Origin: a virus
Taxonomy: Duplodnaviria; Caudoviricetes
Length of the DNA stretch: 64,000 nucleotides
Virus record (IMG/VR): IMGVR_UViG_3300032007_000028
Direction: 5' to 3' (one strand)
The translations under genes were made by a program, and so were the position numbers. Of the stretch, positions 22,874-63,544 are shown piece by piece; position 1 is the first letter of the stretch; each line of letters begins with the position of its first letter. The notes beneath the pieces are model-generated. The model had not been told where the DNA came from and did not search any database. It saw nothing but the letters and a program-made list of their open reading frames with translations.

Positions 22874-22979
22874 ACCTCCTAAGATTTCATATTCACTCAG
22901 GAAGTTATATCAGGGTCACCCCCCCCCCCTCACGTCTCATGAGAAGGAAAACGACCTTGAGTGCTCGCTTAATTTAGCA
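22874..22979 (-). promoter_or_regulatory. Late promoter + G11-tract hairpin + SD-occluding hairpin leader (copy A)
   Basis: C11 at 22919-22929 on plus strand; ACTTCCTGAG/CTTAGGAGGT stem. Confidence 0.7.
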
Positions 22980-22994
22980 AAGAAAAAGCGTACA

Positions 22995-23222
22995 TCAGTA
23001 CGCTTTGTATCTAATCACCTCATCTATGCCGTACTTGCTTTTGAAGTAATCAATCTCCTTCATGCAACCACTCAATGTGCCAATATATGACGATTCAACT
23101 TCGTTTCCCTCTTGGTCTTCGACGATGATGCACCAAGAACGAACGTGTCTGTCGTACCCATACGTGATTCGCGTTGGCTTCGAATCATAGGCTTTTTCGG
23201 GTTCGTCGAATACTATTTTCAT
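22995..23222 (-). CDS. Hypothetical protein
   Basis: 75 aa, AGGAGG SD. Confidence 0.65.
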   Translation of the reverse strand: MKIVFDEPEKAYDSKPTRITYGYDRHVRSWCIIVEDQEGNEVESSYIGTLSGCMKEIDYFKSKYGIDEVIRYKAY

Positions 23223-23234
23223 TGCTGGTCCTCC

Positions 23235-23453
23235 TTATTCGATTACGATTTCACGACATTGCGATTTATAGTAGTCGTATTCTCGTTGATTGAGCCAGAA
23301 CCAGCCCATATCGTCTGTACCGAAGTCCCTATCGTCTTCAGTGATATACGAACCACCGTCGATGAGATGAACTGGATGCTTGCCCTTCGTCTTGACGTCG
23401 TAGATATGCATCTTCGTGGGCTCGAAGTCTGCCCCAATGAATTTAATGCTCAT
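23235..23453 (-). CDS. Hypothetical protein
   Basis: 72 aa in operon. Confidence 0.6.
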   Translation of the reverse strand: MSIKFIGADFEPTKMHIYDVKTKGKHPVHLIDGGSYITEDDRDFGTDDMGWFWLNQREYDYYKSQCREIVIE

Positions 23454-23459
23454 ACGTAA

Positions 23460-23651
23460 CTATTTCCCGTAGACTTCTTGGAACAACTTTTGATAGAGTG
23501 CTTCAGCTTCGTCAAGGCGTTCTTTGAGAACGGTGGGTTTTTCGTAAGCGCCTTCGCTTCCACGAACAGTCTCATCCAAATGCATAACATAATTGCCGAC
23601 TAACTGAATGAGAAGTAATAATTCTTTGTTGCTGAGTTCATTAATGTTCAT
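23460..23651 (-). CDS. Hypothetical protein
   Basis: 63 aa, GAGG SD, TTGACG..TATAAT upstream (about 23674-23702). Confidence 0.65.
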   Translation of the reverse strand: MNINELSNKELLLLIQLVGNYVMHLDETVRGSEGAYEKPTVLKERLDEAEALYQKLFQEVYGK

Positions 23652-23705
23652 ACAATTCTACCTCTTTGCTTATATTATAGTGCGTAAGAGACGAGACGTC
23701 AACTA

Positions 23706-24338
23706 TCAATTCACCTCTGAATAATCATCCTCTTTCAGTTCGTATTTGCACAATTTCTTCAGACGCTTCATTTCCGTTTTGGAGTTCGCTATTAGATATA
23801 GATATCGATTCTTCGAGAATCTCTTCACCGGAATCCAACCACGCTCTTTGGCCATTTCCTTCGTGATGTTGACGCCACACTGTCTAGGATGTCTTAACCT
23901 ACCGTCTTTGTCGAGAAAGAACGTCGCTTGACCAGTCTTCCCTATATAATAAAAGTGCGTAGCTTGATATACGATTCCCTTATGACCTTGCGTAGAGTCC
24001 GAAAAAGAAATAACTGCCTTTATTCTGGGCAAATCTGTCTTAAGCAACTTCAAACATCTGGATATGAAATACGACTCCGTATTCTTTGGGGTACCGTCTA
24101 GCACATGAAGACGATGCAGTTCTATGACGCTGTCTTTATACTCTTCGCCAAACACGGATGCCCGTACGTTCTCAGAACACGGGGTTGCAAAAGCAAGCGC
24201 ACCAATCAGATTCCCCTCTTTGTCGAATAAACCGTAACAGGGAGAAGGGCCGTTATGACAACCGTGGGAATAATGATTCTTTATGATGTATTCTTTCGCT
24301 TGTTTAGCTGGAATTCTTTTAACCTCGTAATCAATCAT
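23706..24338 (-). CDS. Mom-like (GNAT-fold) DNA adenine modification enzyme
   Basis: HYSH..YGLF..ELHRL..PKNTESYFISRCLK..ISFSDSTQGHKGIVYQAT pattern of Mom family. Confidence 0.75.
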   Translation of the reverse strand: MIDYEVKRIPAKQAKEYIIKNHYSHGCHNGPSPCYGLFDKEGNLIGALAFATPCSENVRASVFGEEYKDSVIELHRLHVLDGTPKNTESYFISRCLKLLKTDLPRIKAVISFSDSTQGHKGIVYQATHFYYIGKTGQATFFLDKDGRLRHPRQCGVNITKEMAKERGWIPVKRFSKNRYLYLIANSKTEMKRLKKLCKYELKEDDYSEVN

Positions 24339-24363
24339 TTTTAGCCTCGTAATCAATCATCGT

Positions 24364-25011
24364 TTAATTATTATACAATATTCTTTTCAAACATTCGTAA
24401 GTGAACAAGTCTGTGAGATTATAACAATCGAGCATATTGTTGTCGAGAAAGTAAGAACGATTCTTAGACAACTGCTCAGGCGCAATCGACATGAATTCAT
24501 TCATCATGCGAACGATGCCGTGAACGCACATATCGACTGGCAACGAACCACAATTCTTGGTGAACGACGGGGCATCGTAATCGAAGCCTTGAACGTCATG
24601 TGCGCCAAACAATCGCTCAATCACAGACGAAGTAAGTTGAATGAAGAACGGGATTCTAACCACTTTATATCCCGCTTTCGTATAGAGCTTTTCGCTCTCG
24701 CTGTCACGTTCAATCTGATGTTTGCTTTGATAGTGAGGAAGACCGTCGAACTCGACAATCAACTTCAAAGATTCGCTTTTGTAGTCAGGTCTCTTTCTGC
24801 TGATGCTCTTATCGCTTCCACCAAACGGCTTATCGTGTATGAAGTCGTCTACGTTCGGAAATATGCGCTTAAGATACACATCTAATCCAGTGCGTTCGAT
24901 TCCCGTGTCTACGTCGACACCTGCGCGTTCTGCGTCTTCTGTTGTTTCTCTCAAATAACCTAGTTTCATAGTTTCATTATACAGTCGTTTTGAATCTACG
25001 TCAATATGCAA
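24364..25011 (-). CDS. DUF559/Vsr-like endonuclease
   Basis: RPDY..LIVEFDGLPHY..RD..GYKVVRIP. Confidence 0.7.
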   Translation of the reverse strand: MHIDVDSKRLYNETMKLGYLRETTEDAERAGVDVDTGIERTGLDVYLKRIFPNVDDFIHDKPFGGSDKSISRKRPDYKSESLKLIVEFDGLPHYQSKHQIERDSESEKLYTKAGYKVVRIPFFIQLTSSVIERLFGAHDVQGFDYDAPSFTKNCGSLPVDMCVHGIVRMMNEFMSIAPEQLSKNRSYFLDNNMLDCYNLTDLFTYECLKRILYNN

Positions 25012-25040
25012 AAAAAAGAGACTCCGAAGAGTCTCTTTTG
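25009..25040 (-). terminator. Terminator after major capsid gene
   Basis: AAAGAGACT-CCGAAG-AGTCTCTTT with A run. Confidence 0.75.
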
Positions 25041-25058
25041 TCGTTAGTCGAGCCTGAA

Positions 25059-26123
25059 TTAGGCGCCAACTTCGGCGGTCGGGACCACCTGGTTGGCTTC
25101 GGCGTTCTTGACGTCGACAACTTCGCCAGCAACCAAGAGAGCGGTGTTGAGAAGTTTTAAATCGTACAACGTCATCCAGCCTTGGCTGTTACCACCGTCA
25201 GCGAAGTTGAGCAACGCGGTCGGGGTGATGACCATGTAGGGAGCGAAGACGGCCGCAGAGGTCATGAGGTCGTCGCCGTTGAAGCCGCAGAACCACTTGC
25301 CGGGTTCGAGGATGGGGCTGACGAAGACTTTGAGACCGTTGAGGGTACCAGCGAAGTAGGGACCATTGCGGACTGCGGAAGCGGCAGCCTTCCAACCACG
25401 CATCAAAGCGAGCATGGGCTTGACGTTGGAGGCGCACACCATGTAGTTGGCGTGATAGCGTTGAGTTCTGTCGAAGATGATTCTGGAAGCCTGTTCGATG
25501 GTTTCAGAGAAAGCTTCGTAGTGCTGTTCCATGGAGATTCCGACAGGGACTCTCTTGTTGAACACGAGCGTTTCGTCTTTCGGAGCGGCGCCAGCGAGCA
25601 ACTTGACGATTTCGGTGTCGATTTCGTAAGAGAGTTCAGCGACTGCTTGCTTCGCGAGGACGTCACCGAGGTCGAGGCCCATTTCGGTCTTGGCTTGGAA
25701 AGCGGCCATCTGGTCGAAGTAGATAGCGATACGACGCGGTTTGGCTTCGAGGGCGATGCCTTCGACTTTCATGCCAAGGGTCGGGAGGTCGTTTGCGGGG
25801 ATGCGGACTTGGTCATAGAGATATTTGACCTTGACGATGCCGGAAGCACCGGTGATTTTGACTTCGCCAGTGGCTGCGTCGACGACTTCGATGGAAGCAC
25901 CGGATTCGGCACCAACGAGTTCGGGAGCGTAGGCAGCGGAGATAGGAGTCCAAGCGAGGAAAGCTTTGCCTTCTTCACCGACTTCGACGAGTTCAGCGAC
26001 TGCTTGGGAGGTGTAGTCGATGCGAGCATCGGACATCTTGCCAAGGGCGAACGGGTCATTGAAGACGTCACCTTTTTCGATACCGCCTTTGTTGGAAAGG
26101 GCGATGAAGCGGATGTATTGAAT
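25059..26123 (-). CDS. Major capsid protein (T4 gp23-like), exon 2
   Basis: IQYIRF...EAKPRRI..ELSYEIDTEI..GTLNG..VFAPYM; strongly biased codon usage; joins exon 1 in frame to give 451 aa. Confidence 0.9.
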   Translation of the reverse strand: MQYIRFIALSNKGGIEKGDVFNDPFALGKMSDARIDYTSQAVAELVEVGEEGKAFLAWTPISAAYAPELVGAESGASIEVVDAATGEVKITGASGIVKVKYLYDQVRIPANDLPTLGMKVEGIALEAKPRRIAIYFDQMAAFQAKTEMGLDLGDVLAKQAVAELSYEIDTEIVKLLAGAAPKDETLVFNKRVPVGISMEQHYEAFSETIEQASRIIFDRTQRYHANYMVCASNVKPMLALMRGWKAAASAVRNGPYFAGTLNGLKVFVSPILEPGKWFCGFNGDDLMTSAAVFAPYMVITPTALLNFADGGNSQGWMTLYDLKLLNTALLVAGEVVDVKNAEANQVVPTAEVGA

Positions 26124-27516
26124 CGGTTCTGTTAATCATGTATATTCTTAGTAAATGACTTTGTAGTTAAGACGATTTCTTTTCGCACAGGCTAGTTTCT
26201 CAGGGTCTCTTATCGTCCAGACCTCTATCGCTGTCTGATAGAATTTGGACGTCTTGGCGAGTTCCTGCCATTTGCGAAGTTTCTCTCTACATTCCTCATC
26301 GTTCTCGTCGTACGGCTTACCACCGTGCGTCCAATGAGCGTTGAGTTCGATGAAGAGGTCGTCTTCGACTATGTAGAAGTCACAGTAGTAAGGATATCTT
26401 TTCTTGTCCTTGTACTGTCTGTATATGGTCTTGTTTACGTTTTCTTTGAGCAGTTGTCTGTACAGGTCTTCCTCAGGCTTAGAGTAATTAACAGTACCAT
26501 TAAGTTTCTTCGTGAGAAACGCCTTCGTGACGCGCATTTTTATCTGCTCTGGCGACAAGCGGCTGTTCATGGTTCTCATGTTGTCGCGAACTTTTTTGGA
26601 AACAGGATGTCCCATTTTCGACTTCGATATCTTTTCGATTACTTCATTAGGTCTCTTTTTACCTTTTTGATAGCTTGCTGTGCTTCTTATTTTGGTATGA
26701 GACCTTATGTAATAATACGTTACAGTGTTCGTATAGCCGAATTTTTTAGAACATTGCGTTACCGTGCTTCCTCCTTCGTACATCTCGACGATGCGTTTCC
26801 CTATTTCTTCGGGAATTTCGAGTGTGTGCGATTCGGAGTTGGAACGTATTTCGATACCGTGTTCTTTGAGGACTCTTCTGACCACTTTTGCGCTAAGATT
26901 CAGTTCCTTAGCGCATTTCTCGACGGTTTTCTTTTCGTTTACGTATTTGCTAACGACCTGCTTTTGCAGTTCTTCGTCGACTTTGGTTCTTTGAGCCTCT
27001 GACATCTTTCTTCTAGTCTCTTCAGACCGTTTGATGCCTTTAAGTTTGCGAGAAATCTTTTGTCTCGCTTCTTTCGATATCTTTGCCATATACAATTCTC
27101 CACAAAGCATTACTTCTCGTTCAAGCGTCAGTCGACTTTCGTCGAGCGAGTTGTGGCTCGCTATCTTGAACGATGCTGTCATTTACCAGTAATATCAAAC
27201 TCACTACATTACTATAGTGTCCAGACTATATTATCATCCAATTTCGTCTCATCCTAATTGGATGCCACATCTTTCGGACCGAAGTCCTACTCTACTTGCT
27301 TCTTCATCTTGATATTTCTTCAAGACTATGCTTTCGATAGTCGTTGAGCCTTGTCTGAGAGTCGCGAGCGTAACTGATAGTAAAGGAATAAATCTATCTT
27401 ATTTTACGCGACTTTTTTCTCAAACCTTGGTTGCTGATTGCCCTTACTGGAGGGTTTTCCAGCAGTTAATGTGGTTTTTTGCTGATGCATTACTGCATCA
27501 GGGATTCTATCAGTTA
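26124..27516 (-). mobile_element. Group I intron in the major capsid gene
   Basis: P1 GGATTT/GAATCC with U.G at the 5' splice site; core AATCAGCAACCAAG, TCAACGACTA, ATATAGTCT; terminal G at 26124. Confidence 0.9.
26148..27089 (-). CDS. Intron-encoded homing endonuclease (NUMOD3/HTH repeats + Vsr-like EDxHD-type nuclease)
   Basis: KRSEETRRKMSEA NUMOD3; YYCDFY..FIELNAHWTHG; located 3' of the intron core. Confidence 0.8.
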   Translation of the reverse strand: MAKISKEARQKISRKLKGIKRSEETRRKMSEAQRTKVDEELQKQVVSKYVNEKKTVEKCAKELNLSAKVVRRVLKEHGIEIRSNSESHTLEIPEEIGKRIVEMYEGGSTVTQCSKKFGYTNTVTYYYIRSHTKIRSTASYQKGKKRPNEVIEKISKSKMGHPVSKKVRDNMRTMNSRLSPEQIKMRVTKAFLTKKLNGTVNYSKPEEDLYRQLLKENVNKTIYRQYKDKKRYPYYCDFYIVEDDLFIELNAHWTHGGKPYDENDEECREKLRKWQELAKTSKFYQTAIEVWTIRDPEKLACAKRNRLNYKVIY

Positions 27517-27807
27517 AAATCCTGTACGGGAAGCCATCGGACGAACGATGACGAGTTCGGGAGCGATGAGGTTGGGGATGGCGACCTGCGTGATGTCCAA
27601 GGTGAACTTCTTGAAGGTACCCATGTCTGCGAGCTGAGTAGCACCAGAGTTGGAGAAGGCTTCGTTGATGTTCTTGAGCAAGGTGGCGGTCACGTTCTTT
27701 TGATGTTCGGGAAGGGTTTCGCCCATGTGATTGGCCTTGTAGGCGGCTTCAGTGAGGGAAAGTCTTCTCGCATAAGCTTCGGTGAGCTGTTTTGCTTTGA
27801 GTTGCAT
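27517..27807 (-). CDS. Major capsid protein, exon 1
   Basis: ..IPNLIAPELVIVRPMASRTGF matches the gp23 VQPMxxPTG region. Confidence 0.9.
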
Positions 27808-27855
27808 TCTATTCTTTTCCTTTATAATGTTAAATGTGTTTACGTTTTCGGACTG

Positions 27856-29457
27856 TTACTTGACTAGACCCGCAACGTAGAGCGAGTGTTCGTCGATTTC
27901 GTCGTCGTAGATTGACGACTTGGCTTGAGCCTGAGCGGCGGGCTTAGACTCTTTTATCGAAACCACCGTGTTCTTGTCCAACTTGAACGGCAATTTCGTA
28001 AGGCTGAGGTTGTAGGATTGCAGACTTTCGCAAACGTCGTCGATGTCGTCTAGCGAATACGATTCCTTGAGTCTGCTCTTGATGTCATGAGAATCGACAC
28101 CAAGCACGACCGCTTTGGATTCGATGTATCTGTCGACGACTTCGTTCGCGAGTCTCTTATAGCCTTCGGCGAGTTTGGACGATTTGTTCAATCTCTCCGT
28201 CAACTTGGAGATTTCGCGCTTTGAACGATTGCGTTCGGCATTAAGCGATTCTTCGAGTTCTTTGGTCTTCGTTTCGTTCTCTTTGAGTGCTTCGGACAAT
28301 TTGCGTTCAAGCGTCTTGACCTTGTTCTCGCCGAGTTTGACAGACTCCTTGAGGGAGTTGTTCTCTGAAGCGAACTTACCTTTGCTCTCGACGACCACTT
28401 TGTTGAGTAAAGCGATACTGTCGTTTCTACTCTTGAGTTCCTCTTGCAACTTGGACGCGTCTTTGGCTTTCTCAGACGACTCTTTGACCAAACGCGTCAA
28501 TCTCACGATTGTCGATTTGTTCTTTTCGTCGTTTGCACGTAACCTACTGACTTCCGCATCGCTGACCGCCAGACGTTCCTGAAGCGACTTTATAGTCGAT
28601 TCCATCGTCTTCTTGGCCTTTAACGCTTCCTGCAAATCCCGAATGATGTCATTCGTCCCGTCATCGACGGCCTCTGCGACTTGTTCGGATTTCGCTTGAG
28701 GTTCCTCTTCCTTCTTTATATCCGCATCTTCTTGCGAAGACGTTGATAACTCTTCTTCCTTTTCTTCTTCGACGGCTTTTTCTTCTTCGACTTCTTTGAT
28801 GCCGAGGTCTTCGAGGGCTTCGGTCATCATCTTCTTCTCGTCAGTCGAGTATTCCGTACCGTCCAACTTCTTTGCGTTTTCGATGTCTTCGCAAAGAGCT
28901 TTCTTCAAATCTGTCATATTATTCTTGTCAAGACCTTCCGTCATCGTGAGTCTCGCGTCTTTGACTGCGGGAAGCAACACGAGGTCGAATGTCGTGAAAC
29001 TATATGTATCGGGGTCGACGATTTCGTCGCCGTTCTCGTCTTCGATTATATCACCTGAGCCACGAGAGGAGATACCGAGTTTGAAGCCGTATTTCGCAAG
29101 CTGATACGCGATTCTGCCCATCGGTGTATCGATGAGGTCGCAATATGCGATGAGATGTCCCTCTTTGTCCTTTTTGGGAGCTTCGGGCATCATGGCCGCG
29201 ATTCTACTGCTGTCGGTCTCTTCTCTGTCGGCCGGATGGTCGAGTTCCATGGGTATGCCACCATTGGCGAACATCTCTTTCGTGATGTCGTCGTTGAAGA
29301 CATTCTCCCAAAGCGACTCGTTGTAACCTCTACCGTTGCGAGTCGGGACCGAAATCGAGGCGCAGGGACCGTAAAGTCTGCCTAAAATGCCTCTCTTTTC
29401 CTTTTCCTCTTGGGTCAAATCCTCGAATGCGAGCATTTCTCTTATTCTGTCTTTCAT
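27856..29457 (-). CDS. Prohead protease (T4 gp21-like) fused to coiled-coil scaffold
   Basis: RNGRGY..ELDHP..TPMG..LGISSRGSG..FDLVLLPA; long coiled coil with many LxE. Confidence 0.9.
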   Translation of the reverse strand: MKDRIREMLAFEDLTQEEKEKRGILGRLYGPCASISVPTRNGRGYNESLWENVFNDDITKEMFANGGIPMELDHPADREETDSSRIAAMMPEAPKKDKEGHLIAYCDLIDTPMGRIAYQLAKYGFKLGISSRGSGDIIEDENGDEIVDPDTYSFTTFDLVLLPAVKDARLTMTEGLDKNNMTDLKKALCEDIENAKKLDGTEYSTDEKKMMTEALEDLGIKEVEEEKAVEEEKEEELSTSSQEDADIKKEEEPQAKSEQVAEAVDDGTNDIIRDLQEALKAKKTMESTIKSLQERLAVSDAEVSRLRANDEKNKSTIVRLTRLVKESSEKAKDASKLQEELKSRNDSIALLNKVVVESKGKFASENNSLKESVKLGENKVKTLERKLSEALKENETKTKELEESLNAERNRSKREISKLTERLNKSSKLAEGYKRLANEVVDRYIESKAVVLGVDSHDIKSRLKESYSLDDIDDVCESLQSYNLSLTKLPFKLDKNTVVSIKESKPAAQAQAKSSIYDDEIDEHSLYVAGLVK

Positions 29458-29517
29458 CCAATTCCCTCGTCAACGTGTAAAACGTTATCAATAATTTTAG
29501 CATTTCGACTAGCGTCT

Positions 29518-29526
29518 AATTTAGCA
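29518..29526 (-). promoter_or_regulatory. Putative late promoter TGCTAAATT
   Basis: Upstream of protease-capsid operon, with a variant at 29494. Confidence 0.65.
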
Positions 29527-30610: not shown

Positions 30611-30639
30611 AGTCTATGAACCTTTCTGGAATCTCCGTT

Positions 30640-34596: not shown

Positions 34597-34598
34597 GT

Positions 34599-37243: not shown

Positions 37244-37245
37244 TT

Positions 37246-40168: not shown

Positions 40169-40510
40169 TTACTTTTTCATGCCATTGACGAATGCTATCG
40201 TCTGGTCGATATAGTCGCTTAACTGGTCGATGAACGCATCGAGGTCTATACCTGCCGATTTGCAACTCGCCTTGACGACGTCGATGACCATTTCCTTCTT
40301 CTGCTTGCCTTCTTTGCCGGACTGTTCTGCCTGCTTCATCGCTGAATCAGCTATGTTCTGAATCATCGCCCAGATTTCCGATGCGCTCTTTTGCTTAGTC
40401 GCTTTGATGAAGCCCTTTATCGCGAAGAACGCGCCTATTCCCGTACCGACGAGACCGAAGAGACCTGTGAGTAATGCAATCAATCCGTTTGCCGTTGTAA
40501 TCCAATCCAT
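40169..40510 (-). CDS. Holin-like membrane protein (LL-H type)
   Basis: N-terminal TM helix, AMKQAEQSGKEGKQKKE; late motif at 40547. Confidence 0.55.
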   Translation of the reverse strand: MDWITTANGLIALLTGLFGLVGTGIGAFFAIKGFIKATKQKSASEIWAMIQNIADSAMKQAEQSGKEGKQKKEMVIDVVKASCKSAGIDLDAFIDQLSDYIDQTIAFVNGMKK

Positions 40511-40734: not shown

Positions 40735-41370
40735 TTAAGCCTGTTCTTCAACCCACTGCATAGTTCCGTTGACACACTTGAGGACATAGGTCTTGGATGT
40801 ATCGCTTGGTTTGCTGGGATAGGCAAATGCGTTTTGCAATTTAAACGCATTGATGTCTACTGAAGCAGCCGTGGTGGAAAGAAAGTTTTTCAATGTTTCG
40901 GATGGTTGGGCATTGTGTTGGGAATTGGAAACAATCGCGTTTTTATATGTTTGAGTGGAATCCTTTACCATCGTTTCAAAATTCAAGGTGTTGACTTGGA
41001 AATTGCCTCCTTGCCATTGCATGACGAAGAAGCCTTTGAAGGTGTATGCGTATTTTTCGCTCGGACTCCAAGGTGCTGGGCCATAGTATCTAACGCTCAA
41101 ATAGCCCTCATATTTTCCGCTTTGATAATCCCAGTCAAGTGCTTCGATGAGGTCTTCTAAAGTTGAAATTTCTTCCGATGAAGTTAGGTCGACTTCTAAA
41201 TAGGTCGGTTCGCCACCGCCTCCTTGGACTTCTTCGTATTCAAGCGCGCCAGTCTCGGCATTGACGTGGAGATACTTATCCGCATCTTCCGCTGTAACCT
41301 CAGGGATACGGGCATCTTGAATGTTATATTCCTGATTGTCCTTTTTTACTTTGTTTACGAATTCTGACAT
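40735..41370 (-). CDS. Fibre/adhesin-like protein, FVNKVKK..DARIP tag family (copy B)
   Basis: Shared N- and C-termini with 22356. Confidence 0.7.
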   Translation of the reverse strand: MSEFVNKVKKDNQEYNIQDARIPEVTAEDADKYLHVNAETGALEYEEVQGGGGEPTYLEVDLTSSEEISTLEDLIEALDWDYQSGKYEGYLSVRYYGPAPWSPSEKYAYTFKGFFVMQWQGGNFQVNTLNFETMVKDSTQTYKNAIVSNSQHNAQPSETLKNFLSTTAASVDINAFKLQNAFAYPSKPSDTSKTYVLKCVNGTMQWVEEQA

Positions 41371-41377
41371 CTAAAAA

Positions 41378-41477
41378 ATCTCCTATGATTATATCGTCAC
41401 AGAAGACTTTCATTGGGTTACCCCCCCCCTACGCAAGCGCAGAGAGGAAGCAACTGCGACGTTCAGTTAATTTAGCG
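41378..41477 (-). promoter_or_regulatory. Late promoter + G9-tract hairpin + SD-occluding hairpin leader (copy B)
   Basis: C9 at 41421-41429; AGTCTTCTGTGA/TCATAGGAGATT stem. Confidence 0.7.
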
Positions 41478-42105
41478 TAAGAAGATGGGAGTTTTCGTAG
41501 ATGACTTTGACGATGTTTTCCGGATAATGAGCTTCTAGACCGAATCTATAATCGTTCTTCAGTTTAATCGCTCTTACTGGATTCTTTCTGAAGGGATGCA
41601 ACCAAGAAACCAGACTGTGTTGCATGTTGATTATTGTGAGACCGTAGAATCTGTAACGGAATATCTTATCTATCTTCGAGAATATCTTGGGCACTTCCAG
41701 AACATAAGTCTTCGTTCTTACGTCGGGTCTTACTGCCATCGCGTGTTCGTGAAGAAGCATGGCGAGGGCACCGCCATAACTACAGCCGTAAATGTATATG
41801 TTTTTATACCTATATTTACCGTTTTCCTTCGCGAGTATGTATTCGTCGAATTTGTCCACGAATTTCTCGAACGCGTCGACGAAACCACCATGCACTTTGT
41901 ATTTCGCGGCCTTCGATTCGTACCAACGCGCTCTGAAGTCGAAGCAACGCAACCAAGTCACGTCGTCGCACGCTCCGCCAAAATACAAGAACAAAGCGTC
42001 GTCTTTGGATTCGACTTTATAATAGGTACCACCGTATTTCAGTGGCTTTTTCATGAACAAGCATTTGCACAAGTTATCAATATGATTCATCATCTTCGCC
42101 TCCAC
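41467..42105 (-). CDS. Class 3 lipase-like alpha/beta hydrolase
   Basis: KVHGGF and GCSYGGA (GxSxG) motifs. Confidence 0.75.
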   Translation of the reverse strand: MEAKMMNHIDNLCKCLFMKKPLKYGGTYYKVESKDDALFLYFGGACDDVTWLRCFDFRARWYESKAAKYKVHGGFVDAFEKFVDKFDEYILAKENGKYRYKNIYIYGCSYGGALAMLLHEHAMAVRPDVRTKTYVLEVPKIFSKIDKIFRYRFYGLTIINMQHSLVSWLHPFRKNPVRAIKLKNDYRFGLEAHYPENIVKVIYENSHLLTLN

Positions 42106-46613: not shown

Positions 46614-47120
46614 TTACCGAGTGTCGGTTACTGTGTCGTCGACGAATGAGCCGAAATTTGTCGCGTCAGCTATATTGCTGACTATTATTCTAAAGGAATA
46701 TGGTGCTGTCGAACCAGAAACATCAAGAGAGTAAAATGTGCTTCCACTTCTAGCGATTATCCTGCGACTGGATAACCCTACACTTGTGGAACTTCCGTCT
46801 GCTACGATTCCGTTTATGAAAGAATCTGGGCTTCCGAAAACCATAGGCCCTGCGTAGTCTCTTATTTGAGTGACGGAAGTGAAAGGAGTGGGTCTGTCGC
46901 AAAAGAATCTGAGAAACTGATTCGGCGCGCCGTTCGTGAATTTCACCTCATGCTTATAGAGTTTCGTGCCTCCCGCGCCAGGTGTCGAAAGAACGTAGTC
47001 GCCCTGCGCGTCGACCACGACTGCTTTACCTTCGTCGGAAGATGTGGCGTCGGGAACACGTGTGTCCTTTATCCCATATTCTACGTTGCTCGATATTATC
47101 TTGTTTATGTATTCTGCCAT
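46614..47120 (-). CDS. Fibre/adhesin-like protein, DARIP tag family (divergent copy)
   Basis: EYINKI..EYGIKDTRVP..GGTKLYKH..DTVT. Confidence 0.65.
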   Translation of the reverse strand: MAEYINKIISSNVEYGIKDTRVPDATSSDEGKAVVVDAQGDYVLSTPGAGGTKLYKHEVKFTNGAPNQFLRFFCDRPTPFTSVTQIRDYAGPMVFGSPDSFINGIVADGSSTSVGLSSRRIIARSGSTFYSLDVSGSTAPYSFRIIVSNIADATNFGSFVDDTVTDTR

Positions 47121-53725: not shown

Positions 53726-53922
53726 ATCAATGAATTTAGCGTAGAAGAAAAAAGACGCACTAAGCGTCTTCTCGTTCGTCGTATGCTTCTTGACCTTCTA
53801 CCTTCTGTGCATCGACTCGTCGTTCAGCGTCTGACGACAAACTCACAGCATAAATAGTATCGTCTAGTTTCAATTTGTCTATATTTTTAAATAACAAAAT
53901 ATGATATTTTTGTAACTCTTCA

Positions 53923-54891: not shown

Positions 54892-54933
54892 ATTGAAAAC
54901 ATGTTTCCTTTCTCTAATATATTATACTATATT

Positions 54934-55662: not shown

Positions 55663-55676
55663 AAAAGTACTCCTCC

Positions 55677-56975: not shown

Positions 56976-57080
56976 AACTTTCCTCCTTTTAATGGATTAG
57001 ATGATTTTTGATGAATATAGTTCCCGCATTGCATAGCAGGGTCCTTGGATAGGATGCTCTTCGAAGATAGCTATTTTAAT

Positions 57081-57545: not shown

Positions 57546-57565
57546 AAATTATTTTCTCCTTTATG

Positions 57566-58369: not shown

Positions 58370-58371
58370 AA

Positions 58372-59196
58372 TCAGTTGCTCCCAGTGATGATGTAGAGAT
58401 AACCATCGTATCTAGTAGCTGGCTCTGATGATAGAACGACTACTTTAAGACCGCCGCTTGTATTGGCGGATGTTGGGGCGGATGTGTCATATAGAACTGT
58501 ATCTGCGAAGCCCGCAGTGATGGCACGTTGAGGATAAGCACTATCTAATCCTGCAACTTTCGTTGATTTATTTACAAGAATTTTATGAAAATCAATATTG
58601 TCACTATTTTCACTATAAGGAAATATAAAGGTTAGATATTCAGTATCATTATCGTCGATATATGTTCCATTATAATCCGCAACCACGATAGACATGCCCA
58701 AAGCAGAGCCGTCAAATATGACCGACTGACCGTTCATTGTCGTGTATTGCTCGTTCGTCAACTGAATTTGAAGGGGGTTTTGCGAAATCACCTGCGATGT
58801 GGCGATTGTGACTTTAGGAAGACTGTCTCCCCCACCAAGGCTATAATAATTGCTTCCGTTTTTTAGAGTCGTCAAAGTCGTCGTGGTCGTACCAGAGGGA
58901 ATCGTGGGATTGAATGTGAGAGCGTCCTGCTTTGATGCGAGTTGAGAAGAGGTAGCGAAAGTGGTGCCTTTGCTTAGACTAATCTTTCTGGTGCTGGCGC
59001 TATAGCTCGCTGAGGTAACCGCGTTACCACTGCCAGTCACTTCGATGCTCGTCGCTCCCGTATCGGTCGCGGATAGCTCACCACCAGAAGATAGTGATAA
59101 ATTACTCCCTATAGATTTTACATTCGCAAGACCTTCGACTTTATCCAAATCCGCTTGCATTTGCGTGCCTGTTTGTGTTAGTTTGAACGTAGACAT
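58372..59196 (-). CDS. LTQTG tag + fibre domains
   Basis: Shared tag; C-terminal APTSAN.GGLKVVVLSSEPATRYDGYLY. Confidence 0.7.
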   Translation of the reverse strand: MSTFKLTQTGTQMQADLDKVEGLANVKSIGSNLSLSSGGELSATDTGATSIEVTGSGNAVTSASYSASTRKISLSKGTTFATSSQLASKQDALTFNPTIPSGTTTTTLTTLKNGSNYYSLGGGDSLPKVTIATSQVISQNPLQIQLTNEQYTTMNGQSVIFDGSALGMSIVVADYNGTYIDDNDTEYLTFIFPYSENSDNIDFHKILVNKSTKVAGLDSAYPQRAITAGFADTVLYDTSAPTSANTSGGLKVVVLSSEPATRYDGYLYIITGSN

Positions 59197-59257
59197 ATTT
59201 GTATCTCCTTTGATTGTTTATATAATGAATTTAACGTGTGTTATTCGAAGATGGCTA

Positions 59258-59806
59258 TTATTCAGTACCATTATCGAAATAATATATATGTAAGTCTTTT
59301 CCCACTGACGTTCCTATTAGATTGAACATAGAAACGCTAATATAATCTCCATTAACTTCAGATTTATTTTTGAATACTACTATAGGTTGTACAGAATTAC
59401 CAGTGCTGACAAAAGGAAGATAATCATCACTAGAAGAACCTGTTCCATAAAGAATTGTAACGCCTTTAATGATACTAGAAGTTTGTTTAAATTCAAATCT
59501 AAATGGACCAGTAGTATCTAATTTTTTAACTACTGCTGTTGGTCCAGGTTCGTACATAGACCAGTTATTAGCAGTAGTTCCGTCAGCATATTTTAAGATA
59601 AAATTATTGCTAGTGGCGTATGTTGCTTCTAAATGAAGATATACTGTACCGAAGCTTAATCCCCCACCCCCTCCACTCGATGATAACTCACCAGACGATG
59701 AGAGCGTAAGACCGCTTCCTACGGTCTTTATTTCTGCAAGACTTTCTACTTTATTTAAGTCTGCTTGAACCTGAGCGCCAGTTTGCGTTAATTGAAAATT
59801 GGCCAT
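59258..59806 (-). CDS. LTQTGAQVQADL tag + AT-rich variable domain
   Basis: Shared tag, poly-Gly hinge, GGAGG SD. Confidence 0.7.
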   Translation of the reverse strand: MANFQLTQTGAQVQADLNKVESLAEIKTVGSGLTLSSSGELSSSGGGGGLSFGTVYLHLEATYATSNNFILKYADGTTANNWSMYEPGPTAVVKKLDTTGPFRFEFKQTSSIIKGVTILYGTGSSSDDYLPFVSTGNSVQPIVVFKNKSEVNGDYISVSMFNLIGTSVGKDLHIYYFDNGTE

Positions 59807-59821
59807 TATTCTATACCTCCC

Positions 59822-62551
59822 TTATGATACAGCTATTATTTGGTCATTCGCATCCGTTATGATGTTTCCCTGCGAGTCTTGAACCTTCGTCGAGAACAAT
59901 GCCCTTATTTCTTCTTCCGTCGCCGTTTCGTAGGAACCACCACCTTCGCCTTCGTTTATTATCGTATATACGTTGCCATTTGCGTTCATATACACGTTCG
60001 TCTCATATGGCAGATTTCTGTCCGAAATGGTAATCGTCTTTCTGCTGGACGACGTGCCAAGTACACCCAAATGGATGTGGATATTCTGCAAATAATTGGA
60101 AGCAGTCGCCGAAGTGTCGGTGGAATTGACGTATAGATATTGGCACCCGCTGTCCATGACGATGTCCCTACAATAACCTATCGTCGATGACGAATTGCCG
60201 AACGTGACGTAGCGACACTCGTTTCCGAATACATTGGATACGCAGAATCTTCCAAACGAGTTGTAGGCGCAATTGTTGTCGAACACATTATACCAGAAAT
60301 AATCTACGGATACGTTGTGATGATAGCTATATCCAAATATGTTATTGGAGCAATTGCTTCCAAACGTATTTGAGTAACAGTTGTCATTAAATGCGTTATG
60401 AATGAAACTGTTTCCAAACGTATTGGAGTAGCAACCATCTCCAAACGTGTTGTTGGCGCAACTATTTCCAAACGTATTGCTGTAACAACCGTCTCCAAAC
60501 ACGTTATTGGCACAGCCGTTCCCAAACGTATCGAGATAGCAATTGTATCCAAGCGTGTTTGAGTAACACCCGAAAGAAGTATCTGTCGAATAGAATACGT
60601 TGGAATTAAGCGGTTGTTTGCTCGTACTGATATTGATATAGGCTCTTATTACGTTGTTATAGCATAGTTTGCTTATGCCTAATAATGAAGCGTCTTTGAT
60701 TACGCTGTCTTCTGTGTAACTGAATGTATACGCATTTGTGTATTTTCCTGAAACCGTGAACAATATGTTCTTGAAATCGTAAGGGCAATCGTTATTAAAC
60801 TCGTCTATCATTCTATAGACGACGCCTTTACCATTGGATGAGCCGGCCCATGTGAATCTATTCGTGTCATTGTCTATGCAATAGTTTAATTTCCAAGCAC
60901 TTAAATTACTGTTTGCGAAATAAGTGTCTCCCGTATGTTGAACTGCATATGCGTTTTCATCGAGTTTATTAGCACCATTAGCTTTCACGATGATGTCGAA
61001 TTGATGACCAGCGGACGACGTATTCGATTGACTCGTCGTAGTGACGTAGTCCGTAATTCTATACCAAGTACCTGGAACTAATTGGGAATTGTCTCTTAAT
61101 GTTTTTAATTCAGAGTAAGTCTTTTCGACCAAAGACTCTGAAACATTGGGCTTATTTAATAAATCGTTATAGTTGCCTGTCTTGGCTATCTTATGCAGAG
61201 TAATCTTTCCGCTTCCGGCAATCGCTTCGTTGGCGTTCGTTGATTGCGCAGTGGTTGCTGTCGTATCTAACGTTTTGATTGATTGGTGAGAGGCACTTAT
61301 GGTAATCTTATCGTTAGTTGCATCGCCCGTAACAGAAACAATACCACTGCCTTCAAAATTAACAACAGCGTCCGCGCCAAAAGCAGTGCCATTTCCTTTT
61401 ATCGTTTGATTATGGTCCGCCTTGCCCACGATATCGGCGACCGTTATCGAATTCGTTCCGTCCTTGAGCGAGCCGGACAAATACAAATCGCGCCATTTGT
61501 TGGCGGAGATGCCCAAATCGAGAGAACTTCCGCTGGGGATGAAATGCTTCATCGAATACACATAGGAATTCGAAAGCATGAGGTTGTCCGATTGGAACCC
61601 AATCTTGGCGTTGTATCCGTTGCCGTCCGGTTTGACGTAGAAGTAGTTGGACGTGCTTTCGGTGGCCTTCGCCCTGAGCGTTTGGCCGATGAACGTCTTG
61701 TTGCCAGTTATCGTCTGAGCTGTGTCAGTTGTAACGTGATTCGTAGGCAAATCGTTTGACGTTATAAAATCACTATCATTAGTAAGGTCGCTTGTCTTTG
61801 TGGGAATGGATGCGACGTTCGTCTTCTCATACGCCCATGTTGCTGAAGATGCGCCAAGCGTTACCGTAAGTCGACCTTTCTTCAGAGTGCCATTATCGTT
61901 CTCAAGCGCGGGCGATTCGAAGGTCAATGTAGTGACTGTTGCCGACGCGAGGTTCATGAATTCGCTGTCGTGCTTTACGCCACCGCGTAAGGACATCGCC
62001 AAAACCGTGGCTATATTGTCTATGGAGCCAGATGTTCCACTCAATACAATCATATTGTCGTTCTTTGAGCGAATTAAATTGAAACTTTTGGACACCGCCT
62101 CGTAATAGAACGTGATTTCGTCGGTATTACCATTGCCATCGACGCTTGAGTAAGTCGCGCAATAGACGTTCATTTGCGACGGGTCTGTGCTCATCAAATC
62201 GTATTTGCCGAGCGTGGCGACATACATCTTCTCATTGTCGACTGTGACGTAGATTTTAATGTAGTCCGAAGTTATGGAAGCTGGCGCTGACGCCAAAGTT
62301 GAGGAAGCGTATAATGCTTGGTCTGCGAATACAGCAAACAATCCTTCCAGCTCTGCTTGAGATGCCTCTATTTCGACGGCGGCGGACGGCAAGTCATCAG
62401 TCAACGCTATCGTAGAGTTCTTTGTTAAATTGGGCAAAACGGCCTCATAGCCGTTCTTCTGAAGTCGTTCTGGTATGATTTCGTATGTCTGACTGCCTTC
62501 TACGTCTCCAGGCAGTTTAATCTTTTTTATCTTCTTATCGGGTAAAGCCAT
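59822..62551 (-). CDS. Long tail fibre with beta-helix repeat module
   Basis: IPTKTSDLTNDS, AQTITGNKTF, KTGNYNDLLNKP motifs and NTFG repeats. Confidence 0.75.
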   Translation of the reverse strand: MALPDKKIKKIKLPGDVEGSQTYEIIPERLQKNGYEAVLPNLTKNSTIALTDDLPSAAVEIEASQAELEGLFAVFADQALYASSTLASAPASITSDYIKIYVTVDNEKMYVATLGKYDLMSTDPSQMNVYCATYSSVDGNGNTDEITFYYEAVSKSFNLIRSKNDNMIVLSGTSGSIDNIATVLAMSLRGGVKHDSEFMNLASATVTTLTFESPALENDNGTLKKGRLTVTLGASSATWAYEKTNVASIPTKTSDLTNDSDFITSNDLPTNHVTTDTAQTITGNKTFIGQTLRAKATESTSNYFYVKPDGNGYNAKIGFQSDNLMLSNSYVYSMKHFIPSGSSLDLGISANKWRDLYLSGSLKDGTNSITVADIVGKADHNQTIKGNGTAFGADAVVNFEGSGIVSVTGDATNDKITISASHQSIKTLDTTATTAQSTNANEAIAGSGKITLHKIAKTGNYNDLLNKPNVSESLVEKTYSELKTLRDNSQLVPGTWYRITDYVTTTSQSNTSSAGHQFDIIVKANGANKLDENAYAVQHTGDTYFANSNLSAWKLNYCIDNDTNRFTWAGSSNGKGVVYRMIDEFNNDCPYDFKNILFTVSGKYTNAYTFSYTEDSVIKDASLLGISKLCYNNVIRAYINISTSKQPLNSNVFYSTDTSFGCYSNTLGYNCYLDTFGNGCANNVFGDGCYSNTFGNSCANNTFGDGCYSNTFGNSFIHNAFNDNCYSNTFGSNCSNNIFGYSYHHNVSVDYFWYNVFDNNCAYNSFGRFCVSNVFGNECRYVTFGNSSSTIGYCRDIVMDSGCQYLYVNSTDTSATASNYLQNIHIHLGVLGTSSSRKTITISDRNLPYETNVYMNANGNVYTIINEGEGGGSYETATEEEIRALFSTKVQDSQGNIITDANDQIIAVS

Positions 62552-62561
62552 ATCAAGCACC

Positions 62562-62768
62562 TCACAGCACCAACGTGTCGTCCACCACTTCCCTGTTGCT
62601 TAGAAAAGGCAACTCGCACACTTTGTGAACACCGTCGCCTATCTTGATTCTGGGAGATTCGTCCTCGCACTCGAAAACGAGTATGGTGAACTTATCGGGA
62701 ACGTAGTTTACGGCCTTGTTCCAGTTCTCCCACGTGTCGACCTTAATCGTCGCTGTGGACTTCGTCAT
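62562..62768 (-). CDS. Stand-alone Mtd_N / hyaluronidase N-terminal-like domain
   Basis: DTWENW..P..IKIGDGVHKVCELPF. Confidence 0.6.
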   Translation of the reverse strand: MTKSTATIKVDTWENWNKAVNYVPDKFTILVFECEDESPRIKIGDGVHKVCELPFLSNREVVDDTLVL

Positions 62769-62837
62769 ATGTGCTTGTCCCCCGTCTTTTCAGGAAGTGA
62801 TAAACTCAACCATCTTTTCAGGTCGTTTCTATCAAGT

Positions 62838-62846
62838 AATTTAGCG
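62838..62846 (-). promoter_or_regulatory. Putative late promoter CGCTAAATT
   Basis: After terminator, upstream of the fibre operon. Confidence 0.65.
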
Positions 62847-62901
62847 CAGAACAAAAAAGCCTCAGTAGTTAATACTGAGGCGTAGAGGATGAAGGATGAG
62901 A

Positions 62902-63420
62902 TTAGAGAGCAGTGACTGTGTCTGTAAATACAAATGTTGATTTTGAAGACCAACTAGATAATGCATCCTCAAAAATTGGCGAATTGTCTTCATTAACAGC
63001 GCCAAAGTAATTTGTATATATGGCTATGCTGTGACCAGTTTCAACATTAGGTCCTGTCTGTTTAATATTTGCGATAAACATTTGCGTATTAGCTATTGTC
63101 AAATGAGAAAATGCATTGTAAACAATAGACTCAGCATTAGAAAGAACGCTTTTTAAATCACCATATGTAGTAAGTTGAACACTGCTAGTTGAAGTCCAAT
63201 AAATATGAAAAGGAGTCTGAGATTCTTCATTTTCATATATATTTATTGTATGAAGATATAACTGTGTTCCTCCGCCACCAGCTTCTCCAAGTTCGTAGCC
63301 GCCAGCGTCGGCGACCTTGAGCACCTTACCCGCATCAGCGACATCGGCCTCCGGAATACGAGCATCTCTTATCTCGTACTCAACGTCATTCTTTTTTACT
63401 TTGTTAACGAATTCTGCCAT
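62902..63420 (-). CDS. Fibre/adhesin-like protein, FVNKVKK..DARIP tag family (copy C)
   Basis: First ~50 aa nearly identical to 22356 ORF. Confidence 0.7.
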   Translation of the reverse strand: MAEFVNKVKKNDVEYEIRDARIPEADVADAGKVLKVADAGGYELGEAGGGGTQLYLHTINIYENEESQTPFHIYWTSTSSVQLTTYGDLKSVLSNAESIVYNAFSHLTIANTQMFIANIKQTGPNVETGHSIAIYTNYFGAVNEDNSPIFEDALSSWSSKSTFVFTDTVTAL

Positions 63421-63428
63421 CTATTAAA

Positions 63429-63544
63429 ATCCTCCGTAAGCGTTAATGGCAAACGTAGAGGATATATGCATGAGAGAGTCGCTCCCCCCCCCTCCCTCGT
63501 AAAACGAGAGGGAACACAACCTCGAACGTTCGTTAAATTTAGCA
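63429..63544 (-). promoter_or_regulatory. Late promoter + G9-tract hairpin + SD-occluding hairpin leader (copy C)
   Basis: C9 at 63484-63492; ATCCTCT..GGAGGAT stem. Confidence 0.65.

Follow-up and report, generated by a model that had tools for sequence, protein, structure and literature searches.

A candidate homopolymer-length dimmer in the structured leaders of fibre-like genes of a T4-like phage

In the window, that is, the whole 64-kb stretch of DNA analysed, which belongs to an uncultivated T4-like phage, three stand-alone genes for fibre-like proteins are each preceded by a homologous leader of ~100 nt, in which an uninterrupted run of G forms one strand of a hairpin. This leader is very probably a cis-acting structured control element, and its G-run is likely to be truly hypervariable. 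Taken as a whole, the best explanation, to which we give a probability of roughly 0.4, is that the leader acts as a heritable length dimmer on the fibre paralogs. A fuller version, in which a cis-acting riboregulator would sense homopolymer length and, through a relay of three helices, set the amounts of three alternative fibre proteins heritably and reversibly, seems doubtful.

G-runs, late-type motifs and fibre-like genes

A first-pass annotation of this DNA had noticed G/C runs of nine or more only in the three leaders, and the observation holds even for shorter runs: the only G/C runs of at least 7 in the window are the minus-strand G11 at 22919-22929, G9 at 41421-41429 and G9 at 63484-63492, and matches to G8, of which 0.12 are expected from shuffles, are confined to them. 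Each run occupies the same place in its leader, in non-coding RNA 55-70 nt upstream of the start codon, and its end lies 55-62 nt before the AUG. These homopolymers (G9-G11) thus exceed a length of 7 and stand within a 5′ leader, where a change in length could affect expression. The late motif reported before each leader is also there, as GCTAAATT, 37-48 nt 5′ of all three runs. This motif occurs 15 times in the window, always on the minus strand and always upstream of genes, against 2.5 expected, a count reached by 0 of 100 shuffles. A covariance model built from the leader and searched against the window recovered exactly three copies.

The genes at 22356-22862, 40735-41370 and 62902-63420 share the N-terminus MxxFVNKVKK..DARIPE; their first ~50 amino acids are conserved and their C-termini unrelated, with a collagen-like GXY repeat in one ortholog. 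The leader architecture ascribed to the paralogs is carried by these three stand-alone genes, but a fourth paralog, located in an operon, lacks it. Each cassette has a conserved left flank (promoter, leader and first ~50 codons) and a conserved right flank (3′ arm and terminator), between which lie the unrelated C-terminal domains, differing among relatives. Other late genes have short leaders; the three cassettes are self-contained units between terminators. A gene of the Mom family lies 0.7 kb upstream of cassette 1.

No match to the fibre-like genes was found in Pfam, PHROG or, by sequence search, the PDB, and an AF2 monomer model (pLDDT 55) was too poor for a fold search. A homotrimer model of paralog 1 scored 0.76, against 0.00 for the best of 3 controls, with at least 71% of contacts in agreement between runs and pLDDT of at least 59; among proteins of solved structure, 20 of 30 that form pairs of one chain attain this mark, as does 1 of 23 single-chain proteins, in a calibration based on two copies and on other alignments. 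The model thus supports binding among the fibre-like chains, short of proof.

Three helices of the leader RNA

Each leader is predicted to form three helices. H1 comprises a basal stem, a C/U tract paired to the G-run and an apical stem; H2 pairs an anti-SD with the SD; and P0, a long-range helix, joins the first 16 nt (segment S1) to the anti-SD strand. These elements and the remaining parts of the cassettes are located as follows.

22985..23006, minus strand: terminator-like hairpin and T-run directly upstream of cassette 1 (terminator scan)
22971..22978, minus strand: GCTAAATT late-type promoter motif of cassette 1, one of the 15 copies
22951..22966, minus strand: segment S1 of leader 1, starting at a conserved GA; in P0, CACUC..GG pairs with CC..GAGUG of the anti-SD strand
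22914..22956, minus strand: H1 of leader 1, with basal stem GGUC/GACC, C/U tract 22941-22951 paired with G11 22919-22929, and an apical stem
22874..22905, minus strand: H2 of leader 1, in which the anti-SD ACUUCCUGAG pairs with CUUAGGAGGU (SD)
22356..22862, minus strand: paralog 1, 168 aa, fibre-like, with foldon-like N- and C-terminal beta-hairpin motifs
22313..22334, minus strand: terminator after cassette 1; the 3′ arm before the terminator is common to cassettes 1 and 3
41469..41476, minus strand: GCTAAATT motif of cassette 2, overlapping the stop codon of an upstream lipase-like gene
41449..41464, minus strand: segment S1 of leader 2, where CGUCGCAG pairs with CUGUGACG of the anti-SD strand
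41417..41454, minus strand: H1 of leader 2, a continuous 17-bp stem, CUUCCUCUCU with G9 41421-41429
41374..41411, minus strand: H2 of leader 2, a 15-bp stem burying AGGAGA, closed at all run lengths tried in silico
40735..41370, minus strand: paralog 2, 211 aa, with the MxxFVNKVKK..DARIPE N-terminus
46614..47120, minus strand: fourth paralog (168 aa), sharing the N-terminal module, inside an operon and without a G-run leader
63549..63574, minus strand: terminator-like hairpin directly upstream of cassette 3 (terminator scan)
63536..63543, minus strand: GCTAAATT motif of cassette 3, one of the 15 copies
63516..63531, minus strand: segment S1 of leader 3, where GAACGU..GAGG pairs with CCUC.ACGUUU
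63474..63523, minus strand: H1 of leader 3, UUCCCUCUC with GGGAG9 (run 63484-63492), 3′ flank CUCUCUC
63429..63463, minus strand: H2 of leader 3, AUCCUCU with GGAGGAU
62902..63420, minus strand: paralog 3, 172 aa, with the MxxFVNKVKK..DARIPE N-terminus
62859..62881, minus strand: terminator after cassette 3 (terminator scan)

H1 and H2 fold as the first-pass annotation had drawn them, and both are predicted in all seven distinct leaders (three of the window and four orthologous), with z-scores against dinucleotide shuffles of -3.8, -5.6 and -2.1 for the window folds and of -4.0 to -6.5 for the orthologous ones. The G-run pairs in cis with a C/U tract of 9-11 nt in 7/7 leaders, and the basal stems below it, which like P0 add to the first-pass description, read GGUC/GACC, GUUGC/GUAAC and GAGGUUG/CGACUCUC. 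U makes up about half of the C/U tract, and a change from G to A in the run, which would strengthen the pairs, occurs only once, in leader 3. H1 is followed by UGACCC, UAACCC or AGCGAC. The 3′ flank is in every case rich enough in C to capture surplus G's. In H2, anti-SD and SD pair with a probability of 0.79-1.00 in five leaders, against 0.41-0.46 in the remaining two. P0 is computed to be available to the anti-SD as an alternative partner in every leader, at -10.4 to -15.7 kcal/mol, values matched by 0-4.4% of shuffles, and its calculated probability in nascent RNA still lacking the SD is 0.75-1.0.

The leaders had been described as different in primary sequence; they are in fact homologous, the paralogous ones being 65-72% identical, with a well-conserved stretch over the first ~35 nt and differences in the loops and H2. 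The accompanying claim that stems are kept by compensatory changes is borne out in the basal stem of H1 (C-G in the leader of window locus 1, W1, vs U-A in L003), in its apical stem (G-C in the leader of window locus 2, W2, vs A-U in L005) and in H2 (U-A vs A-U between W1 and L003). P0 is a third covarying helix, with three positions altered on both strands (CACUC:GAGUG in W1 vs ACGUC:GACGU elsewhere). RNAalifold on a MAFFT alignment recovered only the G-run core of H1 and scored zero two-sided covariation there, because the C/U changes opposite G are one-sided and the stems were misaligned; the compensatory changes were therefore taken from individual folds. Their counts are small, since no more than three close relatives (86-97% identity) supplied the orthologs. 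A search of Rfam 15 gave zero matches for the leaders at the gathering score, and at a relaxed threshold the best E-value for the three leaders was 0.079, far below the gathering score. In a crude control with 54 genes of the same phage, the three leaders rank 5th, 7th and 28th for SD occlusion, which is real, yet not extreme for this phage.

Several other readings of the leader were considered. A leader peptide or upstream ORF running through the G-run has neither conserved starts and frames nor an SD at usable spacing. H1 is not an intrinsic terminator or attenuator, because no U-run follows it, and terminator scans flag only the terminators flanking the cassettes. An antitermination RNA of the put type is unlikely, because each cassette is a single gene ending in its own terminator. 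Finally, the run might act on DNA or transcription, through pausing, R-loops or transcript slippage at the non-template G-run, with fewer or more diverse transcripts as the result, or the block of promoter, leader and N-terminal codons might be mainly a recombination handle for C-terminal swaps, the RNA folds being secondary. Long G-runs can block or slip polymerases, and the conserved flanks around differing C-terminal domains would suit such a handle; however, a recombination handle needs no homopolymer, and all three helices bear compensatory changes, a sign of selection on RNA pairing, which makes this explanation quite improbable.

Run length in relatives and in folding models

Relatives were obtained solely via exact-protein look-ups in ENA and Logan. 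Megablast with 8 kb of the window gave no match among GenBank phages, neither protein-pattern and DNA-pattern scans of IMG/VR nor a search of GTDB genomes returned any relative, and the 17 matches of a DNA-pattern scan of JGI metagenomes were all due to chance. The leaders are retained in three related metagenomic phages, with uninterrupted runs of G8, G9 and G10. The proposal that the tract slips in length agrees with two pairs of otherwise identical sequences: L005 and L006 have 0 mismatches in 3575 nt and differ solely in G10 vs G9, and the window and L030 have 0 mismatches in 3507 nt and differ solely in G11 vs G10. In addition, two assemblies end at a G-run, which is at most suggestive of length heterogeneity within the population. 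Run lengths differ in five independent comparisons, which rest on metagenome assemblies and may partly reflect homopolymer errors. Indeed, homopolymers of 9-11 are error-prone, all the data are metagenome assemblies, and contig ends at the runs may reflect a drop in coverage, as would be expected if the differences were sequencing or assembly artefacts and the runs a now functionless legacy of a single duplicated ancestor. Against this very improbable account speak the independence of the five comparisons, the covariation of the C/U tract and stems with the run, and the retention of the run through roughly 30% leader divergence.

As the run lies in non-coding RNA upstream of the start codon, any effect of its length must act through RNA structure. 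The first-pass annotation had imagined the G tract alternating between hairpin 1 and a C/U-rich anti-SD as pairing partners; this was rejected, the ensemble probability of a pair between G-run and anti-SD being 0.00 at n = 6-15 in every leader. Its broader idea, that tract length could set translation, finds partial support in the folding models, by way of a different relay. Folding at varied run lengths alters the structure of 7/7 leaders, with the H1 basal stem collapsing when n exceeds the fitted length by 1-2, but the SD opens in only 4/7, where its exposure rises from ~0.01 to 0.4-0.75 with a longer run. These are limited to the window copy of locus 1 and the locus-3 lineage, whereas in the locus-2 lineage and L003 (3/7) the SD stays closed at every length. 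The natural G10/G11 pair at locus 1 straddles the SD-opening transition. The effect on the SD depends on where the modelled RNA begins and ends, becoming smaller or disappearing with another choice of 5′ or 3′ end; even the 'open' states have a cost of 5-6 kcal/mol, and nearest-neighbour energies are unreliable for long G.U-rich helices and for G-runs. At most, these models allow a graded dimmer rather than a clean ON/OFF choice of fibre, and that run length is a control knob in actual use seems possible, at somewhat less than even odds. In 5/7 leaders the native length is the one at which the SD is most costly to open, a regularity that speaks for the dimmer. Most natural copies are at the fitted length, which is equally expected from plain selection for a perfect hairpin.

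The proposed dimmer would operate as follows. Each stand-alone cassette would be transcribed from the GCTAAATT late-type promoter, giving a leader in which the three helices compete. H2 would restrain translation by holding the SD with the upstream anti-SD, whereas P0, by taking the anti-SD strand with the first ~16 nt of the RNA, would free it. H1 lies between these two helices, and its basal stem uses the 3′ half of the 5′ segment. The helix between G-run and C/U tract tolerates any register, because G pairs with both C and U. A run fitting the C/U tract would keep H1 continuous, with the 5′ segment held in the basal stem and H2 closed. G's would be added by slippage during replication or possibly by that of RNA polymerase, and the surplus would capture the C-rich 3′ flank, open the basal stem and let the 5′ segment move onto the anti-SD, exposing the SD. 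The run could in this way be a heritable, reversible and graded dimmer on each fibre paralog.

A rather unlikely alternative, which is nonetheless in keeping with part of the folding results, regards the leader as a fixed structure, with H1 as a 5′ stabiliser or processing hairpin, H2 as a constant brake, a strong late promoter driving low-copy fibres, the G-run as a hairpin strand that is slippery by chance and its length changes as mere noise, tolerated because either C or U can face G whatever the register. Both hairpins are retained throughout n = 5-15 in 3/7 leaders, and the native length is the best-fitting one, maximising SD-opening energy, in 5/7, as selection for a perfect hairpin predicts. 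The short leaders of other late genes, as compared with these self-contained units between terminators, would also fit, and Bacillus and its phages are known to use 5′ hairpins and, also at the 5′ end, stabilisers of polypurine or SD-like type (STAB-SD; the polypurine stabiliser of SP82). A fixed structure, however, leaves unexplained the covarying P0 that competes for the anti-SD, the uninterrupted homopolymer in three paralogs, where A opposite U would make a stronger stem, and the 3′ flank that can always capture surplus G's.

The equilibrium energies bear on a further possibility. Most natural copies keep the SD shut at 11-13 kcal/mol, and some activator therefore seems needed: an RNA-binding protein of phage or host, or a C/U-rich sRNA, might recognise H1 or the G-run as an operator and open or close H2, co-regulating the paralogs, for instance to time them to late infection. 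The same architecture in three unlinked cassettes would favour this, and there are precedents in RepG/tlpB and in phage Mu, where Com opens a start-site hairpin on the mom mRNA, which recalls the Mom-family gene near cassette 1. Nevertheless, the search for such a factor yielded no candidate: the CxxC motif of a Com-like zinc-finger activator is absent from the small ORFs that separate cassette 1 from the Mom-like gene, the window holds no candidate sRNA, minus-strand C-run of at least 7 or evident C/U-rich partner RNA, the partner of the G-run being the 5′ arm of its own hairpin, and Rfam gave no match. An operator for a trans-acting factor is thus clearly unlikely, and the length dimmer is the reading compared below with known systems.

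Known systems and biological meaning

Phages are known to diversify their receptor-binding proteins through invertases, diversity-generating retroelements (DGRs) and, in Campylobacter phages, frameshifting polyG tracts. In the Campylobacter Fletchervirus phages, which Sorensen et al. are said to have described in 2021, hypermutable polyG tracts at receptor-binding or fibre genes reportedly diversify the population, lying inside the reading frames and switching by frameshift. The window phage likewise has slippage-prone G-runs tied to fibre-like genes, but outside the reading frame, in the non-coding RNA upstream of the AUG. Homopolymers in promoter spacers, between or upstream of the -35 and -10 elements, act on transcription initiation in Neisseria opc and porA and in Bordetella fim; there too a non-coding G/C run slips and grades expression, whereas the runs of the window lie downstream of the only promoter-like motif.

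With regard to the helices, riboswitch-type platforms mask or free the SD through mutually exclusive anti-anti-SD, anti-SD and SD helices, and the phage leaders would resemble them in leaving the choice between helices to an upstream domain, through its basal, P1-like stem; they differ in having neither a ligand-binding aptamer nor an Rfam family, and the 'sensor' would be homopolymer length. The late genes e and soc of phage T4 also have SD-masking hairpins, relieved by transcription that starts inside the hairpin, whereas the promoter in the window is upstream of the whole leader.

To our knowledge, the only well-studied riboregulation by a 5′-UTR G-repeat is that of RepG/tlpB. In the Helicobacter pylori tlpB-hp0102 leader, a variable 5′-UTR repeat of 6-16 G pairs with a C/U-rich segment of RepG (PMC8295292), and the post-transcriptional outcome changes gradually with repeat length and not as an ON/OFF switch (PMC8295292, citing Pernitzsch et al. 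2014). The phage leaders also pair a 5′-UTR G-repeat with a C/U-rich segment, but in H. pylori this segment is the terminator loop of an sRNA that acts in trans, and in the phage it is, in cis, the 5′ arm of H1 itself. The phage element is moreover triplicated and linked both to a hairpin of anti-SD and SD and to an anti-anti-SD helix, and its length effect is an in silico one.

Even if run length turns out to be irrelevant, the leader would still stand as a hitherto undescribed element of translational control, made of three helices and supported by covariation. If the dimmer is real, it would be a cis-acting counterpart of RepG/tlpB and would make the virion surface stochastically diverse with no need for an invertase, a DGR or frameshifting. 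The existence of three natural paralogs with natural length variants makes the system directly testable, and the tuning of translation by a G-run in non-coding RNA, by way of its structure, would represent an additional, very compact route to bet-hedging in host recognition.

Genomic setting of the G-run leaders

Every long ORF of the window lies on the minus strand (43.7% GC), and a T4-type portal, a gp21-like prohead protease and a gp23-like capsid protein are encoded among them. The portal shows ~30% identity to its nearest counterparts, those of large Streptococcus, Bacillus and Listeria myophages. Searches of GenBank phages, IMG/VR, JGI metagenomes and GTDB genomes did not find a close match to this phage, which is represented only by a small number of metagenome contigs in ENA and Logan, each ~104-150 kb long. 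The major capsid gene carries an insertion with a group I intron, and in a relative (contig L004) the gp23 gene is intact at the same place (451 aa, no insertion). A protein with BspA-type repeats hints at a gut or oral environment of the host.

Features of the window (coordinates, strand, description)
7104-10058, minus: 984-aa protein with BspA-type leucine-rich repeats (PF13306, E 3e-79)
22919-22929, minus: G11 run, leader of cassette 1
23706-24356, minus: Mom-family protein gene (PF25680, E 1e-40), 0.7 kb upstream of cassette 1
26125-27520, minus: insertion of ~1.4 kb that splits the gp23-like major capsid gene
26148-27182, minus: 344-aa ORF in the insertion, without a Pfam family
27202-27527: group I intron in the insertion (Rfam match RF00028, 57 bits, E 8e-12)
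40169-40510 and 41467-42105, minus: genes flanking cassette 2, holin (Phage_holin_6_1) and class-3 lipase-like, respectively
41421-41429, minus: G9 run, leader of cassette 2
46614-47120, minus: fourth paralog, within an operon and without a G-run leader
63484-63492, minus: G9 run, leader of cassette 3

The first-pass annotation had singled out the three G-runs as the only long G/C runs of the window, and indeed no further G or C run of at least 7 occurs in the 64 kb, where shuffling predicts 0.12 runs of G8. All three lie 37-48 nt 3′ of a GCTAAATT motif, which is found 15 times against 2.5 expected, always on the coding strand and just upstream of genes. Most copies are followed by a start codon 7-40 nt downstream; a leader of ~100 nt follows only three, and these head the paralogous genes of cassettes 1, 2 and 3 (22356-22862, 40735-41370 and 62902-63420). 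Run over the window, a covariance model of the leaders recovers exactly these three copies. Terminator-like hairpins bracket cassettes 1 and 3, the upstream one abutting the motif, and therefore the leader RNA most likely begins at GCTAAATT. T4 late promoters consist of a -10-like element only, and by analogy with them transcription would start at a conserved GA, 5-6 nt past the motif. With such a start, the late mRNAs of two further GCTAAATT units (16410-16417 and 53733-53740, minus strand), where the ATG lies merely 7-8 nt past the motif, would be leaderless or nearly so. Beside cassette 2, the stop codon of the class-3 lipase-like gene falls within the motif.

The fibre-like paralogs and their leaders in relatives

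The first ~50 residues of the paralogs are conserved, whereas the C-terminal parts are unrelated among them and swapped between relatives; one ortholog (P0006) contains a collagen-like GXY repeat. The C-terminal motif of two paralogs resembles the T4 fibritin foldon. A three-copy model scored 0.76, against 0.00 for the best of 3 controls, with contact agreement of at least 71% and pLDDT of at least 59 over the runs, and its predicted interface comprises the conserved N-terminal motif and the C-terminal hairpin. Of 30 proteins solved as same-chain pairs, 20 reached the 0.76 mark, as did 1 of 23 single-chain ones; since this calibration rested on two copies and other alignments, the model lends support to binding without demonstrating it. 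The model of the monomer is poor, and no family matching the paralogs was found in Pfam, PHROG or the PDB. The term 'fibre-like' is thus reasonable but unproven. C-terminal domains are exchanged even among close relatives (62902-63256 compared with L001, L009 and P0002), while promoter, leader, first ~50 codons and 3′ arm are conserved. In one sample (ERZ27256887), the window's version, on a 144-kb contig, occurs together with a 1.4-kb contig that has a different C-terminus (P0002) and the same downstream genes.

Three related phages, whose flanks are 86-97% identical at the nucleotide level, retain the leaders at orthologous places, with runs of G8 at locus 1 (L003, L004), G10 and G9 at locus 2 (L005 and L006) and G9 and G8 at locus 3 (L001 and L009). 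The G-run leader is absent from L007, L008 and L027, which carry the protein module but are more distantly related. The three leaders had been described as one architecture with different primary sequences, which holds for the loops and stems, quite different among paralogs, but overstates the divergence, as the leaders are 65-72% identical and their first ~35 nt well conserved. Judged from their sequences, they are diverged duplicates rather than convergent designs.

Predicted architecture of the leaders

Two hairpins are predicted in all seven distinct leaders, those of the window (W1, W2 and W3, by locus) and four orthologous ones; relative to dinucleotide-shuffled sequences, their z-scores are -2.1 to -6.5. 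Hairpin H1 comprises a basal stem, a C/U tract of 9-11 nt paired with the G-run, and an apical stem, whereas in H2 the Shine-Dalgarno sequence (SD) pairs with a pyrimidine anti-SD. The proposal that these stems are kept through compensatory changes was borne out for both hairpins by the individual folds: C-G in W1 versus U-A in L003 (H1 basal stem), G-C in W2 versus A-U in L005 (H1 apical stem) and U-A in W1 versus A-U in L003 (H2). Automatic scoring with alifold misses these changes, because a C/U change opposite G alters one side of the pair only and because the stems are misaligned by MAFFT. No Rfam family matches the leaders.

A third helix, P0, can be formed in all seven leaders by pairing of the first 16 nt of the putative RNA with the complementary anti-SD strand and its adjoining bases. 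The duplex reaches -10.4 to -15.7 kcal/mol, a value matched by only 0-4.4% of shuffled 5′ segments, and covaries at three positions changed on both sides (CACUC:GAGUG in W1 versus ACGUC:GACGU or AACGU:ACGUU in others). The GG in the 5′ segment of each leader is able to pair with the CC to which the SD is otherwise bound, and P0 has a probability of 0.75-1.0 in an RNA cut just before the SD. With P0 as anti-anti-SD, H2 as anti-SD/SD and the H1 basal stem competing for part of the 5′ segment, the predicted leader thus resembles a classic expression platform in its topology. It is very probably a cis-acting structured control element restraining translation. In a crude control with 54 genes, the three genes come 5th, 7th and 28th by degree of SD occlusion. 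A role at the level of DNA or transcription is, in our estimation, very improbable.

An exact 10-mer, ATCCTCTACG, occurs three times:
22334-22343, minus: conserved 3′ arm just before the terminator of cassette 1
62881-62890, minus: conserved 3′ arm just before the terminator of cassette 3
63454-63463, minus: anti-SD/P0-partner region of leader 3

Sharing this 10-mer with leader 3, the 3′ arm could mimic the anti-SD, or else be a partner of the 5′ segment, the SD or the G-run.

Run length and its predicted effect on translation

Two pairs of contigs differ over their compared length by a single G of the run: L005 and L006, from two samples (G10 versus G9 at locus 2, over 3575 nt), and the window and L030, a same-strain Logan contig (G11 versus G10 at locus 1, over 3507 nt). 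In contig L028, locus 2 is identical to the window. Moreover, base 1 of L029 corresponds to position 63482, the exact 3′ edge of the locus-3 run, and L006 begins 20 nt before the locus-2 run; contig ends so close to a G-run (20 nt at most) in two independent assemblies would agree with length heterogeneity among the reads or with a drop in coverage at the homopolymer. Such length differences and contig ends are what a hypermutable tract would give, with homopolymer errors in short-read assemblies as a possible alternative. The runs are probably truly hypervariable, and it is hardly credible that the length differences are pure artefact.

Ensembles were computed for each natural leader with only the G count varied, from 5 to 15. 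The G-run had been proposed to toggle between H1 and the anti-SD, but the probability of the latter pairing is 0.00 throughout the scan. The cost of opening the SD-to-AUG stretch is highest when the run just fits the C/U tract, and this fitted length is the native one in five of the seven leaders (W2, 9; L005, 10; L001, 9; L009, 8; L003, 8). W1 (G11) and W3 (GGGAG9) are longer than fitted and predicted to be looser (5-6.5 versus 11-13 kcal/mol). A fixed stabiliser-plus-brake leader, with run length as tolerated noise, would account for this regularity and is the main rival, though a somewhat unlikely one: it leaves unexplained P0, the C-rich 3′ flank and the purity of the homopolymer, half of whose partners are U, yet G-to-A was seen once. 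A leader serving as operator for a trans factor would agree with most natural copies being shut at equilibrium, but is distinctly unlikely, as no candidate factor was found in the window, including the three small ORFs (63, 72 and 75 aa) between the Mom-family gene and cassette 1, which lack a zinc-finger motif.

As for run length itself as the regulator, once a run exceeds its fitted length by one or two G's, these are predicted to pair with the C-rich flank on the 3′ side (CCC or CUCUCUC) in all seven leaders, and the probability of the H1 basal stem falls from ~1 to below 0.1. The claim that tract length sets SD accessibility stands in part. The released 5′ segment then occupies the anti-SD in W1 and in all three leaders of locus 3, where the probability that the SD is unpaired increases from ~0.01 to 0.4-0.75; this effect weakens or disappears if a different 5′ or 3′ end is assumed. 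In the locus-2 lineage and L003 the SD state does not respond, because H2 is too strong. The natural pair at locus 1 straddles the transition, with anti-SD:SD probabilities of 0.82 at G10 and 0.46 at G11.

The polyG tracts of Campylobacter Fletchervirus phages reportedly lie in coding sequence, unlike the non-coding run of the leaders. In phage biology, these hypermutable tracts are the closest parallel (Sorensen et al. 2021). A literature search did not find a phage 5′-UTR homopolymer switch described. As for mechanism, the closest system is RepG/tlpB of H. pylori, where a C/U-rich loop pairs with a variable 5′-UTR G-repeat whose length grades expression (PMC8295292); in the phage leader, the C/U partner is in cis. 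In the most likely pathway, surplus G's would capture the C-rich 3′ flank, opening the H1 basal stem, so that the 5′ segment would move onto the anti-SD as P0 and free the SD. Through this relay of basal stem and P0, run length may be a knob that the phage uses, with a probability of about 0.4, and would then act as a graded, heritable dimmer.
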